Of a stretch of DNA of 64,000 nt, positions 47,193 through 57,205 are shown one piece after another; position 1 is the first letter of the stretch; every line of letters starts with the position of its first letter. The stretch lies in the NCBI GenBank assembly GCA_017528205.1, contig JAFXPE010000032.1:6430-70429 (forward strand), in the 5' to 3' direction. This stretch comes from Alphaproteobacteria bacterium. GTDB lineage: Bacteria; Pseudomonadota; Alphaproteobacteria; RF32; CAG-239. The position numbers and the translations under genes are program-made. The notes under the pieces are model-generated. The model was given only the letters and a program-made list of their open reading frames with translations. It was not told the DNA's origin and made no database searches.

Positions 47193-47279
47193 GCGCTTGT
47201 GGCGGAATCGGTAGACGCTGCAGACTTAAAATCTGTTGGGATTTATCCCGTGCCAGTTCAAGTCTGGCCTAGCGCACCA
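47193..47279 (+). tRNA. tRNA-Leu (anticodon TAA), type II with long variable arm
   Basis: Hand-folded, 87 nt:
- acceptor GCGCTTG/CTAGCGC, with a U6-U67 mismatch
- D arm GCG-GAATCGGTAGA-CGC
- anticodon stem GCAGA/TCTGT, loop CTTAAAA
- variable arm TGGGATTTATCCCGT
- T stem GCCAG/CTGGC, loop TTCAAGT
- discriminator A, then CCA. Confidence 0.9.
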
Positions 47280-52733: not shown

Positions 52734-53102
52734 CTATCTCCCATTTGATTTTTGCGGTGGTGTGAGCGGTTGGCCAGAATGTTCAAGACTGTCTGTTTGT
52801 GTTGATATGTTTTGATTATTACCGCTTTGAGGTGTGGCCGTTTTGCGGATCATGCGTAGGATCTCACGCTCTTCTGGTGTAATTTCTTCCGGTTGCCATG
52901 CCGTTGGTAACACATCAAGAGGCTTGCAACCGAGTGCGGTGGCAATTTTTTCAACCTGCTCAAGATCCATAGAGCGTGCATTATTCTCTAACCGGCCAAG
53001 ATGGACTTGGCTTATACCTATTTTTTCGGCAAGCTGCTCTTGCGTTAATCCGGCTTTTTTCCGCAGTTGCCTGATATTATTCTTAATAATCGTATCAGTC
53101 AT
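52734..53102 (-). CDS. XRE/CI-type HTH phage repressor without a peptidase domain
   Basis: 122 aa. IRQLRKKAGLTQEQLAEKIGISQVHLGRLENN is a canonical HTH_3 motif. The C-terminal 50 aa are Pro/Gln/Thr/Ser-rich with no S24 motifs. Confidence 0.82.
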   Translation of the reverse strand: MTDTIIKNNIRQLRKKAGLTQEQLAEKIGISQVHLGRLENNARSMDLEQVEKIATALGCKPLDVLPTAWQPEEITPEEREILRMIRKTATPQSGNNQNISTQTDSLEHSGQPLTPPQKSNGR

Positions 53103-53765: not shown

Positions 53766-54145
53766 GTAACGATATTAAAGATTTCAGTCGAATGATCGGC
53801 GAATTAGAGGACGGTCAATTTAATGCTGACTGCTCGCAGCAGTTTGAAAAGGCGTTGCAGTCCGTTAAGGAACGTTGTGAGATTGATGGTGCAAAATCGG
53901 CTACGGCCACAATAGCTGTCAATTTGAAAATCAGTTTTGTGAGTGGTAATATTGAGGTGAACGCCGATGTTTCAAGCAAACTGCCGGCTAAACCGCGCAA
54001 CCGCTCAATCTTCTGGCTTTCAGAGGACGGCAAAGGGATTTGCCGCGAAAATCCTAAACAGCCTCGCCTGCCGTTTGATGTCATCGCCGGCAAGCGTGAA
54101 GTAGTCAACTATGATAACGAAAGGAAAGATATAAATGGAGAATAA
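53762..54145 (+). CDS. hypothetical phage protein
   Basis: GTG 53762 overlaps the upstream stop (GTGA) and follows AGGAGA. 127 aa. Confidence 0.5.
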   Translation: MSNDIKDFSRMIGELEDGQFNADCSQQFEKALQSVKERCEIDGAKSATATIAVNLKISFVSGNIEVNADVSSKLPAKPRNRSIFWLSEDGKGICRENPKQPRLPFDVIAGKREVVNYDNERKDINGE

Positions 54146-55022
54146 TGAAAATACCGTTGTTGCGGTTAGGGATATTGTTGAAAAATATTTTGAGCCGCGT
54201 GTTGTGCAGGTTGAGGGCACAAAAGGCTTGCTTGTTGCACCGGAGGGCATGAGCGTTGCGCACGTCAAACGGTTTATTGATGATGAGCGTCAAGCACCGG
54301 AAGTGTTAAAAGGCAGCACGACGCTACATAATTGCAAGAGCTTTATTGATTTTGTAAATCGCTATAAATATGATACTTCGGCAATTTTCTATGATCAGGA
54401 TAAGCAAAAAATTACTTGCATATTTGATTGCGCAACAAAGGACGTGACAAGTTTTGAACGTCATAAGGCTGATTATGCTTTCCCTTTCAGTGACGAATTG
54501 AAAGAGTGGAAAGAGCATAACGGTGATATTATGACGCAAATTGATTTTGCTTTCTTTATTGAAAAGAATGTTTTGGATTTAGCTGATCCTGATAAGACAG
54601 CCGAAAGTGAGGCCTTAAAAGAGATCCGGCTACGCATTGGCGGCCATTTTGCTGCCGTTAGCAAAATGGTGGAACTCTCCAGAGGCATTTCAATCCATAG
54701 TGATGAACGCGCTACGGTTAAATATGATCCGAATACCGGTGAAAGCACGGTTGATTTTTCAAGTGAGCATACCGACGCCGCCGGTGAAAAGGTAAAAGTG
54801 CCGAATATGTTTTTGATTGTTATACCTATTCTTAAGGGCGGTAAATCGTATCAGTTGCCATGTCGGCTGCGCCACCGCTTAAAGAATGGACAGATTATAT
54901 GGTGGTATGAAGTGATTGATCTTGATAAGGCCATCGCTGCCGCGATTGATGAAGAATTGAACGAGATTAAAGATAAGATCGGCTTGCCGGTATTCTACGG
55001 AGATTTGCCATCAGGCAGATAA
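54135..55022 (+). CDS. DUF2303 (YfdQ-like) phage protein
   Basis: 295 aa. The pattern ..SFIDFVNRYK....AIFYD......C.FD........ERHKADY.F.FS.E.KEW......M.Q..FAFFIE.N..D...P agrees with my memory of the YfdQ family. Confidence 0.55.
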   Translation: MENNENTVVAVRDIVEKYFEPRVVQVEGTKGLLVAPEGMSVAHVKRFIDDERQAPEVLKGSTTLHNCKSFIDFVNRYKYDTSAIFYDQDKQKITCIFDCATKDVTSFERHKADYAFPFSDELKEWKEHNGDIMTQIDFAFFIEKNVLDLADPDKTAESEALKEIRLRIGGHFAAVSKMVELSRGISIHSDERATVKYDPNTGESTVDFSSEHTDAAGEKVKVPNMFLIVIPILKGGKSYQLPCRLRHRLKNGQIIWWYEVIDLDKAIAAAIDEELNEIKDKIGLPVFYGDLPSGR

Positions 55023-55031
55023 TGTGATTAA

Positions 55032-55056
55032 AGGCGGTGGTGAAATACCACCGCCT
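55032..55056 (+). terminator. strong GC hairpin after the DUF2303-like gene (no clear U-tract)
   Basis: AGGCGGTGGT (55032-55041), loop gaaat, ACCACCGCCT (55047-55056). Confidence 0.35.
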
Positions 55057-55116
55057 GCACCGGTATTATTACGATATTACAATATAAGAGCTTAATTTAT
55101 CAAAGGGTTGAAAATA

Positions 55117-55401
55117 ATGGTTGAAGAAACAGAAAAGAAAAAGGGTTGGGTTGTGCCGGTGGCAGCGGTTGAGGCGTTGCGATCGGAGGACGCTGAACTG
55201 TTTAAGGAGGCATTTTTAGCCATGCATGACTATAATATGAACGGTGATGTTGATATGACGGCCATGACGCCTGCAGCGCGTGTGTTGTTTAGTTTGTTTA
55301 AGGAAACGATTGACGGCAATATGCGCCGCTATGAGGCTATAAAAAAACGCAATCAGGAAACAGCCAAGAGCCGAAAACCGCGCAAGAAAAGAGGAGAATA
55401 A
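55117..55401 (+). CDS. small DUF6291-like protein (domain seen at N-termini of phage replication organisers)
   Basis: 94 aa from ATG 55117. ...LFKEAFLAMHDYNMNGDVD...TPAARVLFSLFKETIDGNMRRYEAIKKRN....K.RKP resembles the DUF6291 pattern (..Y...G.......F...K..ID.N..RYE). This rests on recollection only. Confidence 0.4.
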   Translation: MVEETEKKKGWVVPVAAVEALRSEDAELFKEAFLAMHDYNMNGDVDMTAMTPAARVLFSLFKETIDGNMRRYEAIKKRNQETAKSRKPRKKRGE

Positions 55402-55748
55402 AAATTTTTACCAAAAGTTACCAGTGGTAAAAAAACACGCAAAATTTTACCAAAAGTTACCAGTGGTGACGAAAAACGAATAAAGGCAGCCAAAACCGGC
55501 CGCAAACGCAGTAAAATGATTTTTAGTTAAAAATTTGGTAGCGGTTGGTGAGGTTTGGTGAAAAAAAAGAAAAGAAAAAGAAGCAAAAAGAAAATAAATA
55601 AAAAATTATTTTGGTTGTTGGTTAAAAGGTAGTCGGTTTAAGGGTTAAAGGTTTAAGTTATGGGTTACAGGGAAAAGGTTAAGAGGGTTACAGGGAGAAA
55701 GGAAAAGGTTGCAAAACTTGTGGATAGATCCACACGTTTTGTGGATAA
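55401..55748. repeat. non-coding repeat region: 27/28-bp direct repeat x2, polypurine tract, GGTTA-type iterons and three DnaA-box-like sites (candidate phage origin)
   Basis: - AAAATTTT(T)ACCAAAAGTTACCAGTGGT at 55401-55428 and 55441-55467.
- A purine run at 55561-55607.
- GGGTTACAGGGA at 55662-55673 and 55685-55696.
- TGTGGATAG at 55719-55727, AGATCCACA at 55726-55734 and TGTGGATAA at 55740-55748. Confidence 0.55.
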
Positions 55749-55987
55749 ATGCTTGTCACATAAACGCGCCTTTGCGGACAAGCCTGCCGGCTTACCCTCG
55801 CAAAGACTGCGTTATACAAGCATTTTGGAGATGATTGCAGGCAAAGCTGCAATCATTAGTGCGCAAGTTAAAACTTGCTTATTGCGCCTATCGGCGCAGG
55901 CTCGGCAAGGAAAAGGAGCGCGTTTTTGGCTTTGTGCAGCAATTTCTGTCTATTTTTTGGTTGCAAGTGTTGTATGGGAGGTTAAGA

Positions 55988-56377
55988 ATGTTATCAAAAA
56001 TCAGAACGATTGAAGATGTTAAGTTTGAATTGACGCGGTATTTTGAAACATTGCGCGCCTTACCGGCACCGGAACGGCCGGATTATGCCAAGAATTACCT
56101 CTGGCAACTGCTGCCAAGTGAGCCGAATGACGATGACAAAGAGGCAGCCGGCAAAAGATTTCAGCCGACAACGGTGGATATAGCAGATTGTTGGTATATG
56201 GACGCCAATTTTATACCGCTGCTGACTAAGTTTGAATATAAATTGCTTAGCCGCCGGCTGCGTGATAAGCCGCTGCCGTGGAAAGTGATTGAACATGAAA
56301 CAAATTACTCACGGCAATGGCTTAAATTCTACATGGATAAAGCCTTGCAACGCCTTTTTGTCCACATGAAAAGTTAA
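55988..56377 (+). CDS. putative late-gene regulator (in the position of lambda Q / RinA-ArpU-type activators)
   Basis: GGGAGG lies 6 nt before ATG 55988. 129 aa. The C-terminal LLSRRLRDKPLPWKVIEHETNYSRQWLKFYMDKALQRL looks like a sigma-region-4-type HTH. It is the last gene before the terminase leader. Confidence 0.45.
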   Translation: MLSKIRTIEDVKFELTRYFETLRALPAPERPDYAKNYLWQLLPSEPNDDDKEAAGKRFQPTTVDIADCWYMDANFIPLLTKFEYKLLSRRLRDKPLPWKVIEHETNYSRQWLKFYMDKALQRLFVHMKS

Positions 56378-56454
56378 TTTTTAGACACAAAATGAGTTAT
56401 TAAGAGATACAAAAAGATTAAATAATATGATAAATCAAGCACTTATAATGATAA

Positions 56455-56530
56455 TTTACATCACTTTACAAACACTTTACATCAATTTACAAAAAATGAC
56501 TTTACATAATCACGTTAATCAAAGTATAAA
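56455..56530 (+). promoter_or_regulatory. five phased TTTACA repeats, the last forming a candidate late promoter
   Basis: TTTACA occurs at 56455, 56465, 56476, 56486 and 56501 (spacings 10, 11, 10, 15). The last copy, an 18-nt spacer and TATAAA (56525-56530) form a sigma70-like promoter. Confidence 0.45.
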
Positions 56531-56566
56531 AATTGTAGGATAGGGTTTTTAGACTTTATCCGGTAG

Positions 56567-56596
56567 AGGCCACTCATTTGAGCGGCCTTTTTGTTT
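56567..56596 (+). terminator. intrinsic terminator ~35-60 nt downstream of the candidate late promoter
   Basis: AGGCCACTC / GAGCGGCCT stem (one mismatch) followed by TTTTTGTTT. Confidence 0.55.
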
Positions 56597-56641
56597 GGTG
56601 TAACACTGAACAATAACCCTGCGACGGGTTAAGCTCCAAAG

Positions 56642-56675
56642 GCCACGCGCTATTCAACCGGCGCGTGGCTTTCTT
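56642..56675 (+). terminator. second GC-rich hairpin terminator immediately before terS
   Basis: GCCACGCGC (56642-56650) / GCGCGTGGC (56661-56669), then TTTCTTG. It ends 2 nt before the terS ATG. Confidence 0.5.
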
Positions 56676-56677
56676 GT

Positions 56678-57205
56678 ATGGTGAATGAAATGACAAAGGA
56701 AAAGAAAACAACAAAGGCAAAAAAGTCGGTTGGCCGGCCGAAAGTGAAATGGAAGAGCAAGGCAAACGCTGACAGGATTTTTGCGGCCATGCAAGACGGC
56801 AAGAGCTTGCGACAGATCTGCAGAGAGAACGGTTGGCCACACAGCACGGTGCTTGCTTGGTTGAATGGTGAGTTTTCTGACCAATACACGCAAGCGCAGG
56901 AGCGGCGCGCGGATTATTACTTTGAGGAAATACTTGAGATCGCTGACAGTTGTCCGGCTGATAAGGAGGAAGTGGCTGCAGCCAAGTTAAGAATTGATAC
57001 GCGCAAGTGGATCATAGGCAGAATGAATCCCAAAAAATACAGTGACAGGGTTAATGTTGACATGAGCGGTGAAACAAAGGTGACGCATGACGGAACAGTT
57101 GAATTTACCCCGACAGATATGGCAATATCGCGACTTGATGAAATCGTTAGCAGAGCTATCGGGGAAAGAAAAGATACAGGCTTGGAGGACACTGGCGAAA
57201 AATGA
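56678..57205 (+). CDS. terS: terminase small subunit
   Basis: 175 aa. N-terminal HTH (GRPKVKW.....DRIFAAMQDGKSLRQICRENGWPHSTVLAWL) and the conserved ...RIDTRKWIIGRMNPKKYSDR pattern of small terminases. It lies directly upstream of terL. Confidence 0.72.
   Translation: MVNEMTKEKKTTKAKKSVGRPKVKWKSKANADRIFAAMQDGKSLRQICRENGWPHSTVLAWLNGEFSDQYTQAQERRADYYFEEILEIADSCPADKEEVAAAKLRIDTRKWIIGRMNPKKYSDRVNVDMSGETKVTHDGTVEFTPTDMAISRLDEIVSRAIGERKDTGLEDTGEK

Follow-up and report, generated by a model that had tools for sequence, protein, structure and literature searches.

A prophage module of a rumen bacterium that probably forms an iteron-type replication origin with its own DUF6291 protein

Why should about 590 bases of DNA that lie between two genes be conserved more strongly than these genes themselves? 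This question is raised by the gap at 55402-55987 in the prophage of a rumen bacterium, which lies within the 64-kb stretch of DNA that was analyzed (the window). The initial annotation had proposed a theta-type phage origin here, made of iterons, a melting-prone asymmetric tract and DnaA boxes, and had considered that the region might instead be a non-conserved spacer. The latter does not agree with the comparison of related phages: more than 16 relatives with 40-kb genomes, from uncultured gut and rumen Alphaproteobacteria, share the gap module, with a mean column identity of 78%, as against 53-75% amino-acid identity for the flanking proteins, and the same architecture recurs in numerous 40-kb genomes that appear complete and in virome contigs, from different animals. 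The gap had also been described as lacking a convincing ORF, and indeed the frames of the ORFs predicted in it by gene callers are not kept among relatives. For this reason, two candidates were dropped, a leader peptide after AAGGAG and a small ORF in the inter-cluster spacer; the latter is open in some relatives but is stopped or startless in L003 and in the window. The module sits between the early genes and the Q-position gene, which in lambdoid phages is the location of O and P. All sequence features reported for the gap were found again, and their rarity is far past chance expectation. From left to right, the locus contains the following features:

55117-55401, plus strand: gene of a DUF6291-only protein of 94 aa, the proposed origin-binding mini-initiator
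55402-55469, no strand assigned: putative iteron cluster A, two tandem 39-nt units, with TTACCA half-sites at 55408, 55418, 55447 and 55457 and full palindromic sites TTACCAGTGGTAA (55418-55430) and TTACCAGTGGTGA (55457-55469)
55470-55530, no strand assigned: A/T-rich inter-cluster spacer, partly conserved (GCAAAcGCAGTAAAAtGATTTTTAGTTAAAAA), without conserved ORF
55531-55561, no strand assigned: putative iteron cluster B, three half-sites in inverse orientation, TGGTAG (55536), TGGTGA (55546) and TGGTGA (55556), in exact 10-bp phase
55560-55611, plus strand: A-rich polypurine tract, 44 purines in 52 positions, about 17% G+C
55612-55712, plus strand: C-depleted G/T/A tract of about 100 nt with GGTTAA / GGGTTACAGGGA units, ending in AAAGGAAAAGGTTGCA
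55719-55727, minus strand: predicted DnaA box 1, CTATCCACA with one mismatch (plus-strand reading TGTGGATAG)
55726-55734, plus strand: third 9-mer, AGATCCACA, the right arm of palindrome TGTGGATAGATCCACA, unconserved
55740-55748, minus strand: predicted DnaA box 2, perfect TTATCCACA (plus-strand reading TGTGGATAA)
55745-55930, plus strand: conserved multi-hairpin element of about 180 nt that begins directly at DnaA box 2; predicted helices P1 (55747-55756 with 55816-55825), nested P2, P2a and P2b, then P3, P4 and P5
55988-56377, plus strand: gene of a 129-aa "late regulator" in Q position (context gene)

The putative iteron array begins at the stop codon of the DUF6291 gene. A repeat search recovered two 39-nt direct-repeat copies that are 85% identical (55402-55440 and 55441-55479), each containing TTACCAAAAG followed by TTACCAGTGG, which substantiates the palindrome-containing direct repeat of the initial annotation. 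Cluster B was absent from the feature list of that annotation. Seven half-sites fall within 159 nt, as compared to 1.05 per kb across the whole window, and in total 7-9 TTACCA/TGGTRA half-sites are distributed over the two clusters, about 40-fold above background. Iteron-type phage origins possess arrays of at least three repeated initiator-binding sites, and the putative iterons form such an array. The TTACCA motif is conserved and 10-bp phased in relatives and also occurs inside the initiator genes of the Vibrio phages BT-1011 and 1.214.O; the reverse complement of cluster B includes the 10-mer TCACCAACCG, which is also found in the 1.214.O origin. The GGTTAA / GGGTTACAGGGA units that had initially been taken for iterons are present (repeat families D4 and D6), but relatives conserve them as composition and not as phased repeats, and they are therefore not the iterons; this role falls to the TTACCA / TTACCAGTGGTAA repeats of the two clusters. 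The spacer between the clusters may be a bend or the site of an accessory protein.

Next to the iterons lies the polypurine tract, which is nearly invariant among relatives (GCAAAAAACAAAAGAAAAAGAACCAAAAAGAAAAATAAAAATATAT). An A+T-rich element beside the iterons is a usual part of iteron-type phage origins, and the tract is a candidate DNA-unwinding element, albeit not the least stable DNA of the prophage, as the immunity region and the spacer at 56400-56550 are lower in G+C. The "nearly pure purine run" described earlier is present, with the purine count listed above. The C-poor stretch was described accurately: of the 183 nt at 55530-55712, exactly 6 are C (A76 G55 T46), and this is the sole place in the 64 kb where a 183-nt interval has ≤8 C or G. 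The GC skew reaches +0.85 in this stretch, and the G content of the tract is only 30%. Its terminal AAAGGAAAAGGTTGCA is nearly invariant, being exact in every fetched anchor-bearing locus except L020 and L021, which have one mismatch each; the anchor is absent from L016. In all rumen loci examined, the equivalent C-free run is the longest of the locus (51-168 nt), and the same holds for 5 of 6 loci with full-length initiators (41-69 nt); the C-free tract is a family-wide trait of these origins that is present even inside coding sequence. The C-depleted tract may extend the unwinding zone or act as a strand-specific element.

The right edge of the putative origin is marked by DnaA boxes 1 and 2, which have the same orientation and start 21 bp apart. 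This spacing is kept in 13 of 16 rumen loci though the sequence between the boxes varies, and most relatives have a perfect TTATCCACA at the position of box 1. Perfect DnaA boxes occur only twice in the 64-kb window and are few elsewhere in the rumen loci; L027/L016 and L029 have degenerate boxes only. From the initially described cluster of three boxes, those at 55719 and 55740 hold as conserved elements, and the 9-mer at 55726 does not. The palindrome TGTGGATAGATCCACA was also considered as an operator and dropped, as its right arm is unconserved. No DnaA-box pairs were found near the origins of phages that encode a full-length initiator and a loader; only the rumen phages carry them, and the boxes may have been acquired by this lineage. 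Consensus boxes at the edge also belong to Rep-plus-DnaA plasmid origins, and the recruitment of host DnaA, which the initial annotation had suggested, is probable. The 9-mers could, however, be bound by another protein or act on transcription.

To the right of the boxes, the hairpin element was predicted with RNAalifold, and a search for copies with the resulting model R1 found one per phage. Paired cells make up 94.8% of the alignment, compensatory changes are seen at 25 of 37 pairs, and none of 500 shuffles matched this. As there are 51 G.U cells versus 4 A.C, it is the plus strand that folds, and the element appears to be a separate covarying plus-strand RNA structure, with a conserved loop GGCAAGGAAAAGGAG after helix P5. 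It had no Rfam match at gathering score or at E-values up to 10. Most likely, the late-regulator mRNA has this element as its structured leader. An interpretation of the hairpins as intrinsic terminators was dropped, as U-runs after the stems are inconsistent among relatives. In a promoter scan, the plus strand of the gap showed no sigma-70-like site; for this reason, and because manual fits were poor, the idea of a promoter on TGTGGATAAAT was dropped. RNA data consist of one 291-nt metatranscriptome contig of a relative that spans 55621-55910; in RNA runs, the polypurine tract draws spurious low-complexity matches. In X24, the one raw-read DNA run, only the tRNA was present and the phage was absent. 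As to the late regulator itself, its AF2 model gave weak, non-significant Foldseek matches (E >1), mostly to sigma-factor chains (region 4 in two of them), and a profile search against PDB sequences returned nothing significant.

Which protein would bind the iterons? The 94-aa protein scores 41.3-41.5 bits against PF19808 (DUF6291; gathering cut-off 27.2), and its AF2 model shows three helices, the C-terminal one being long and running into a basic tail. PF19808 and the PHROGs 16304, 19415 and 15768 are annotated as of unknown function, NCBIfam has no family for this protein or for the late regulator, and no paper in the literature library that was searched mentions the family. In the INPHARED phages, neither tblastn with the 94-aa protein nor blastn in distant mode with 54100-57100 gave a match. 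Most of the 67 remote homologues are 200-330 aa long and have DUF6291 at their N-terminus, and the C-terminal parts of the ten scanned match PHROGs annotated as "replisome organizer", "replication initiation O-like" and "DnaD-like helicase loader" as well as Pfam Phg_2220_C. The cultured DUF6291 phages compared have Vibrio and Riemerella hosts: in Vibrio phage 199E37-1, the full-length gene lies beside a "putative replication protein P", in BT-1011 beside a DnaC-like loader, and in RAP44 the DUF6291 gene itself is annotated as primosomal/replication protein. In phage initiators of the O-like kind (replisome organizers), DUF6291 is the N-terminal domain. The protein of our prophage, like that of the related rumen phages, ends after this domain and does not have the C-terminal helicase-recruiting part, and the initial view that no initiator is recognizable needs to be corrected, as the small DUF6291-like protein corresponds to a stand-alone N-terminal domain. 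Among the phage initiators compared, a 94-aa initiator without the helicase-recruiting part has no described precedent. No Pfam match to a winged-helix Rep of the Rep_3/RepA/TrfA type was found for the protein, and Foldseek with the DUF6291 model against the PDB as well as a profile search against PDB sequences returned nothing significant, with no detectable relation to solved structures by sequence profile or fold. As the model has no significant fold match, we infer DNA binding by the domain from analogy with lambda O and SPP1 G38P.

The full-length genes also link the domain to the DNA elements. Their 10-bp-phased iterons lie inside the gene, directly past the domain-coding part (TACCA...TACCACTGGTAA in BT-1011 and 1.214.O, AACCCA...AACCCAGTGGGTT in 199E37-1), and a C-free tract follows. 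Three iteron types track two residues after an invariant (K/R)N-x-x, namely T/I-A with TTACCA, N-G with AACCCA, and I-S with GACTTAA; in the 94-aa protein, the type I motif ...KKRNQE-TA-KSRK, with T-A at residues 83-84, is located at the junction of helix and tail. No covariation with the iteron type is seen for the small terminase (TerS), the late regulator, the repressor or Cro, and all four were therefore dropped as candidate iteron binders. Binding sites beside the gene of their putative binder, together with a covarying specificity, are characteristic of iteron-type phage origins, and at the sequence level both are seen here. Adjacency confounds this correlation, because the swap boundary falls within the gene's 3' end, and in the full-length genes the iterons themselves encode part of the "tail" peptide. 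The pairing recurs in both the rumen and the Vibrio lineages, which weakens the adjacency objection and does not remove it. The 94-aa DUF6291 protein is the probable iteron binder.

The initial annotation had pointed out that a canonical replication module elsewhere in the prophage would argue against an origin at this site. Neither early operon of the window was found to contain a replication gene, and the same is true for the gene tables of all relatives and for tables that cover about 37.6 kb of a 40.9-kb relative contig, where no canonical module was seen. Genes for a loader or a helicase are missing from the window and from the relatives. What iteron-type phage origins otherwise have, a helicase- or loader-recruiting domain and a partner loader gene (P, G39P), is likewise absent.

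We therefore regard the stretch 55402-55750 and the gene at 55117-55401 as the probable replication module of the prophage, in which an iteron-type (theta) origin is combined with an origin-binding protein of its own. The comparative evidence strongly supports the theta-type origin of the initial annotation, and the computational data point to an origin of the lambda/SPP1 type in a truncated, plasmid-like (Rep plus DnaA) variant. Anatomy, statistical rarity, conservation, DUF6291 homology, the covariation of motif and iteron, and the contrast in DnaA-box presence were observed directly, and from comparison the following mechanism can be proposed. The 94-aa protein would be made by early rightward transcription, and its dimers, which are implied by the palindromic iterons, would bind the TTACCAGTGGTAA sites as well as the TTACCA/TGGTRA half-sites that recur in 10-bp phase in clusters A and B, with a specificity that would be set at the junction of the long C-terminal helix and the basic tail. 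The nucleoprotein complex would destabilize the adjoining polypurine AT-rich and C-depleted tracts, and transcription through the region may assist opening, as it does at ori-lambda, which is activated by transcription (PMC5043065). Because the protein is without a DnaD/O-like domain at its C-terminus and no loader of the P-like or DnaC-like kind is encoded by the phage, it would be host DnaA on the two phased boxes at the right edge that recruits the host helicase, as at Rep-plus-DnaA iteron plasmids. A more far-reaching version, which we regard as possible and put forward tentatively, is that the 94-residue three-helix protein is the complete phage-side initiator, with a two-residue iteron code, with domain and loader shed, with helicase loading left to host DnaA, and with the adjoining RNA coupling origin activity or transcription to the late regulator.

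What alternatives exist for such an origin? The position of the module directly upstream of the Q-position gene, its end in a covarying plus-strand RNA structure, the lack of a sigma-70-like promoter between module and late-regulator gene, and a DUF6291-only protein without helicase-recruiting part would all be compatible with a regulatory array, in which the protein is a reused transcription factor or roadblock that controls read-through of the early operon into the late regulator, in which DnaA boxes and hairpins are part of the control region, and in which replication takes place elsewhere or by another route. This is unlikely, as the same iterons and C-free tract occur inside bona fide replication genes of cultured phages, as the gene tables of the 40.9-kb relative contig show no other origin or replication gene, and as iterons, AT-rich tract and DnaA boxes are the layout of an origin (PMC4980987). 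The extreme positive GC skew with a C-free sense strand could alternatively point to an R-loop origin, comparable to T4 oriF/oriG (reviewed in PMC3016281) or ColE1, in which a rightward transcript forms a hybrid at the C-free tract and thereby opens or primes the origin, while hairpins and DnaA boxes load the helicase on the displaced plus strand and the iteron binder is accessory. The family-wide presence of the tract even within coding sequence would suit this idea, the displaced strand would be the plus strand, on which the hairpins fold, and the palindrome at box 1 could form a hairpin with a DnaA box. But G makes up only 30% of the tract, the spacing of G-runs (by eye) is unlike the usual pattern of R-loop initiation, the frequent and conserved G.U pairs suit RNA better than single-stranded DNA, the box 1 palindrome is unconserved, and the joint swap of iteron specificity and protein motif would be left unexplained, which makes this mechanism rather improbable.

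Another conceivable scenario is decay: a full-length initiator gene with an internal origin might have lost its 3' half, leaving phages that are replication-defective or helper-dependent. The protein indeed comprises only the N-terminal domain of its longer homologues, and origin-like DNA is found where linker and C-terminal domain would be encoded. However, tblastn with full-length homologues detected no C-terminal coding trace in the gap, the gap is under higher constraint than the neighboring genes, the architecture recurs in many apparently complete genomes and virome contigs from various animals, and DnaA boxes and RNA element are new, conserved, lineage-specific parts, so that a relic is highly improbable. 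Least probable is a packaging region (pac or cos) recognized by the Sf6-like small terminase, whose gene lies 1 kb downstream; the initial annotation had raised this possibility for pac. Regions of the pac and cos type typically show repeats and bent A-tracts upstream of terS, and terS (56678-57205) is near, but one gene and a 300-nt spacer lie between, the same iterons occur in initiator genes of phages with unrelated packaging modules, and the N-terminal regions of TerS are near-identical in L002 (type I) and L005/L020 (type II). It is this lack of covariation between TerS and iteron type that disfavors a pac site.

The proposed iteron-type origin resembles ori-lambda and gene O in several respects. 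In both, palindromic iterons suited to initiator dimers are followed by an A+T-rich, strand-asymmetric tract, the early regulators lie on one side and the Q-position gene on the other, rightward transcription is likely to activate the origin (PMC5043065), and origin and initiator gene are physically linked, so that specificity and sites are inherited together. The full-length DUF6291 proteins are in the O position as well, with a P-like gene next to it in 199E37-1. Unlike in lambda, the origin of our prophage is non-coding and lies past the stop codon, the 94-aa protein has no C-terminal domain, its putative DNA-binding domain is DUF6291 and not Phage_rep_O, there is no P-like loader gene, and DnaA boxes are present. 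As with the iterons and C-free tract of the full-length DUF6291 genes, ori-lambda lies inside gene O and SPP1 oriL inside gene 38 (PMC5043065, PMC6316719), the latter with direct repeats as well as an AT-rich unwinding element that are bound by the organizer encoded there (PMC6316719). Full-length DUF6291 proteins match "replisome organizer" PHROGs, G38P being the replisome organizer of SPP1, but SPP1 requires its own loader G39P and helicase G40P, neither of which is present in our prophage. The same parts, with helicase recruitment shared with DnaA, are found in the iteron plasmid origins P1 oriR, pSC101, F oriS and RK2 oriV (PMC4980987, PMC5043065). These differ from the module described here, which is in a temperate phage genome and has a putative three-helix binder of 94 aa in place of a two-winged-helix Rep, palindromic 10-bp-phased iterons and a long C-free tract.

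The analysis suggests an origin-binding role and a candidate recognition code for a widespread unannotated domain, whose proteins hold the O position in phages of very different hosts. Our prophage may encode a natural minimal phage initiator, as host DnaA boxes appear to replace the helicase-recruiting domain and the loader, and this would link phage origins of the lambda/SPP1 type with Rep-plus-DnaA plasmid origins. For annotators, it becomes possible to place origins in many gut and rumen phages that seemingly have no replication genes. Swappable types of origin specificity bear on the replication incompatibility of co-resident phages, and a new structured RNA with covarying pairs is described upstream of the late regulator.

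Within the window, the prophage and the gap behind its DUF6291 gene (94-aa protein, Pfam PF19808) are organized as follows.

Gene order of the prophage and elements of the gap, in window coordinates
47193-47279: tRNA-Leu, after which the prophage starts
first in the gene order: leftward early operon of small genes (HNH, LexA-like DNA-binding domain, dUTPase)
52734-53102: HTH repressor
next, in order: Cro-like gene, phrog_204 protein, DUF2303 protein
55117-55401: DUF6291 gene
55402-55987: gap, 586 nt
55402-55440 and 55441-55479: two 39-nt tandem units
55536, 55546 and 55556: iteron cluster B (TGGTAG, TGGTGA, TGGTGA), inverse orientation
55719 and 55740: DnaA-box-like 9-mers TGTGGATAG and (perfect) TGTGGATAA
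55745-55930, plus strand: multi-hairpin element, starting at DnaA box 2, just outside the region delimited by the initial annotation
55988-56377, plus strand: Q-position gene ('late regulator', 129 aa), then Sf6-type TerS, TerL and portal

In neither early operon of the window was a helicase, primase, polymerase, loader or member of a known initiator family detected, which agrees with what had been stated for the early-right operon, and direct reading of the gap recovered all elements listed in the initial annotation. The direct repeat described there is a tandem pair with 85% identity in a repeat search of the window; both units hold TTACCAAAAG, then TTACCAGTGG, and the first forms the perfect palindrome TTACCAGTGGTAA (55418-55430). 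The second iteron cluster, with its spacing of exactly 10 bp, had been overlooked. Iteron half-sites number 7 in 159 nt, compared with 1.05 per kb across the window, an enrichment of about 40-fold. The stretch at 55530-55712 indeed contains only 6 C in 183 nt, is the sole spot in the 64 kb so poor in C or G, and reaches a GC skew of up to +0.85; at 55560-55611, 44 of 52 bases are purines. In some relatives the spacer between the clusters (window 55470-55530; 6383-6598 in L001 and 2480-2665 in L005) carries an ORF with an ATG start (MPRKANK... / MCRKPNK...) and an SD-like sequence. As this frame is stopped in the window and startless in the relative L003, the spacer is conserved as DNA.

Viral, metagenome and GTDB contigs were searched with protein queries, which together with exact-protein look-ups yielded more than 16 distinct relatives. 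These are ~40-kb phages or prophages of uncultured Alphaproteobacteria that live in the guts of roe deer, rabbit, cattle, pig and other animals. The interval from cro to the DUF6291 gene is variable (YfdP/DUF2303 in some, GapR-like protein plus methyltransferase in others), and the block of DUF6291 gene, gap and Q-position gene was found in every relative. Mean column identity of the aligned gap is 78%, and protein identities are 66-75% for DUF6291 and 53-58% for the Q-position protein. The repeat architecture, whose conservation had been suggested as a check, has a constant order: iterons in one or two clusters (10-bp tandem arrays or ~40-bp units), A/T-rich spacer, nearly invariant polypurine tract, C-free G/T/A tract, AAAGGAAAAGGTTGCA, two TGTGGATAA 9-mers, and hairpins. 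The G/T/A tract is the longest C-free run in every rumen locus (51-168 nt), and AAAGGAAAAGGTTGCA is nearly invariant, with one mismatch in L020 and L021 and absence from L016. A replication module elsewhere, which the initial annotation regarded as evidence against an origin here, was not found: in one relative with a 40.9-kb contig, gene tables for ~37.6 kb contain an integrase and early genes, a structural module like that of epsilon15, a lysis hydrolase, a 2792-aa protein and a diversity-generating retroelement (RVT_1 + Mtd_N), and no replication gene.

What is the function of the DUF6291 protein? Searching 1.8 billion representative proteins with a profile turned up 67 remote homologues, most of them 200-330 aa long with DUF6291 at the N-terminus, and in ten scanned homologues the C-terminal parts matched the PHROGs replisome organizer, replication initiation protein, O-like and DnaD-like helicase loader, as well as Phg_2220_C (Pfam/TIGRFAM). 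By these profile matches, DUF6291 is an N-terminal domain of replication proteins. In cultured phages such genes belong to replication modules: in Vibrio phage 199E37-1 one immediately precedes the gene of a 'putative replication protein P', in Vibrio phage BT-1011 one immediately follows a DnaC-like loader gene, and that of Riemerella phage RAP44 bears the annotation primosomal/replication protein. In the full-length genes, the origin anatomy lies inside the coding sequence, directly past the DUF6291 domain: BT-1011 and 1.214.O have type I iterons (CTACCAAATCTACCACTGGTAA... and GTTACCAAATCTACC) that share the 10-mer TCACCAACCG with cluster B of the window, 199E37-1 has type II iterons (AAACCCAAGATAACCCAGAAAAACCCAGTGGGTT...), and in all three the iterons are 10-bp phased and followed by a C-free tract encoding a D/S/N/G/V linker. 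This internal arrangement resembles ori-lambda, which lies within gene O and has palindromic iterons that O dimers bind and, next to them, a 40-bp A+T-rich tract (PMC5043065), and SPP1 oriL, which lies within gene 38 (PMC6316719). That the C-free tract is kept even within coding sequence indicates that it matters; it may extend the unwinding zone, serve as a strand-specific binding element or be prone to R-loops. The low-complexity linkers encoded directly after the iterons (DSDSDS, NVNVN, NGNGNG; L034 4334-4377, L035 4304-4364, L038 2804-2872, L039 2836-2899) may be by-products of this DNA-level origin element.

Three types of iterons occur among the loci.

Iteron types and the loci carrying them
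Type I: TTACCA / TTACCA(G/C)TGGTAA; window, L017, L001-L003, L030, L033
Type II: AACCCA / AACCCACTGGGTT; L005, L019, L020, L021, L025, L029, L031, L032
Type III: GACTTAA / GACTTTAAGTC; L016/L027

As L027 and L029 have the whole downstream part in common and differ in iteron type, the iterons constitute an exchangeable specificity cassette. Four proteins do not follow them: TerS of L002 (type I) is nearly identical to that of L005/L020 (type II), the Q-position protein of L002 resembles that of L020, and L019 has the window's immunity type (Cro and repressor) together with type II iterons. Only the end of the DUF6291 protein tracks iteron type: after the invariant (K/R)N, the aligned sequence is x-x-(T/I)-A-(K/E) in every type I phage, x-(E/N)-N-G-(K/L) in every type II phage, and A-S-I-S-K in type III. 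The rumen lineage shows this pairing and so, as regards types I and II, does the Vibrio lineage, where the two proteins of differing type are ~80% identical on either side of the swapped segment. Since the boundary of the swap falls within the final codons of the DUF6291 gene, tracking alone could be linkage; the presence of DUF6291 in replication proteins and of iterons inside the full-length genes argue for a functional basis.

Among other readings of the gap, a packaging site is disfavoured, because TerS does not covary with iteron type and phages with different packaging modules have these iterons too. A decayed gene relic is likewise disfavoured, as the gap holds no C-terminal coding remnant and is strongly constrained. 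With lower probability, the module may instead be a purely regulatory array or an R-loop-primed origin. It is quite probable that the gap is an origin whose iterons are bound by the DUF6291 protein, DNA binding by this domain being supported by analogy and covariation, and the whole statement, a phage origin with DUF6291 initiator and use of host DnaA, appears fairly likely on what is entirely computational evidence.

With respect to DnaA, the 64-kb window has only two perfect boxes. Of the box cluster initially described, the same-orientation pair is what relatives keep: the TGTGGATAA pair is spaced exactly 21 bp in 13 of 16 loci although the intervening 12 nt vary freely, so the palindrome present in the window is not the conserved feature. 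Perfect TTATCCACA boxes of rumen phages concentrate at the module, usually paired, with few in the 8-20 kb flanks, and none was found near the origins of six full-length-initiator loci. The lineage without C-terminal domain and loader is thus the one with DnaA boxes, and this contrast suggests that helicase recruitment may have been handed over to the host. The parts list is that of iteron plasmids in which a Rep protein works together with host DnaA (PMC4980987), and functional DnaA use by the rumen phages is somewhat favoured.

For the hairpin element, RNAalifold (10 and 19 sequences) predicted helices, some nested and some in series, that show many compensatory changes, and a covariance model found exactly one copy per phage. 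In the model-fitted alignment, which somewhat favours pairing, 94.8% of cells pair, versus 78.5% after shuffling and 33-48% when partners are slid, and 51 G.U versus 4 A.C cells (somewhat favoured likewise) indicate that the plus strand folds. Both sides change in 25 of 37 pairs, a level reached by 0 of 500 shuffles, and L021, L030, L031 and L033 re-form helix P1 with sequences that are entirely different. An RNA is more likely than single-stranded DNA, and the element, with its conserved single-stranded motif GGCAAGGAAAAGGAG (about 55903-55917), is probably a structured leader of the Q-position mRNA. An Rfam search gave no match, and scanning found no promoter inside the gap. A 291-nt pig-gut metatranscriptome contig (RNA read run X25, ~93% identity) covers window 55621-55910, i.e. 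the C-free tract, the DnaA boxes and the greater part of the hairpin element, and gives weak evidence of plus-strand transcription across the origin. The 'late regulator' itself has no Pfam, NCBIfam or PDB sequence match; its AF2 model (pLDDT 79) gave only weak Foldseek matches (E above 1), mostly to sigma-factor chains (region 4 in two).

Upstream, a 10-bp perfect hairpin, AGGCGGTGGT / ACCACCGCCT, lies shortly past the stop codon of the DUF2303 gene, where it overlaps a promoter-like site (55032-55056, 55040-55069); the DUF6291 gene may have its own transcription signals. The 80-kb MAG contig JAFUSH010000052.1 carries the DUF6291 gene twice, ~42 kb apart (L017 60476-68757, L018 18345-26626), both copies 95% identical to the window protein; a tandem double lysogen or a concatemer from assembly may account for this. 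The retroelement lies in the tail region of the relative contig L041 (14761-17786, Ga0310696_10001037), with a 367-aa RVT_1 reverse transcriptase near a 351-aa Mtd_N-domain protein. The 2792-aa virion-region protein (L040, 15181-20642 and beyond), very large for a 40-kb podovirus-like genome, matches LPD23 and, faintly, Peptidase_M78.
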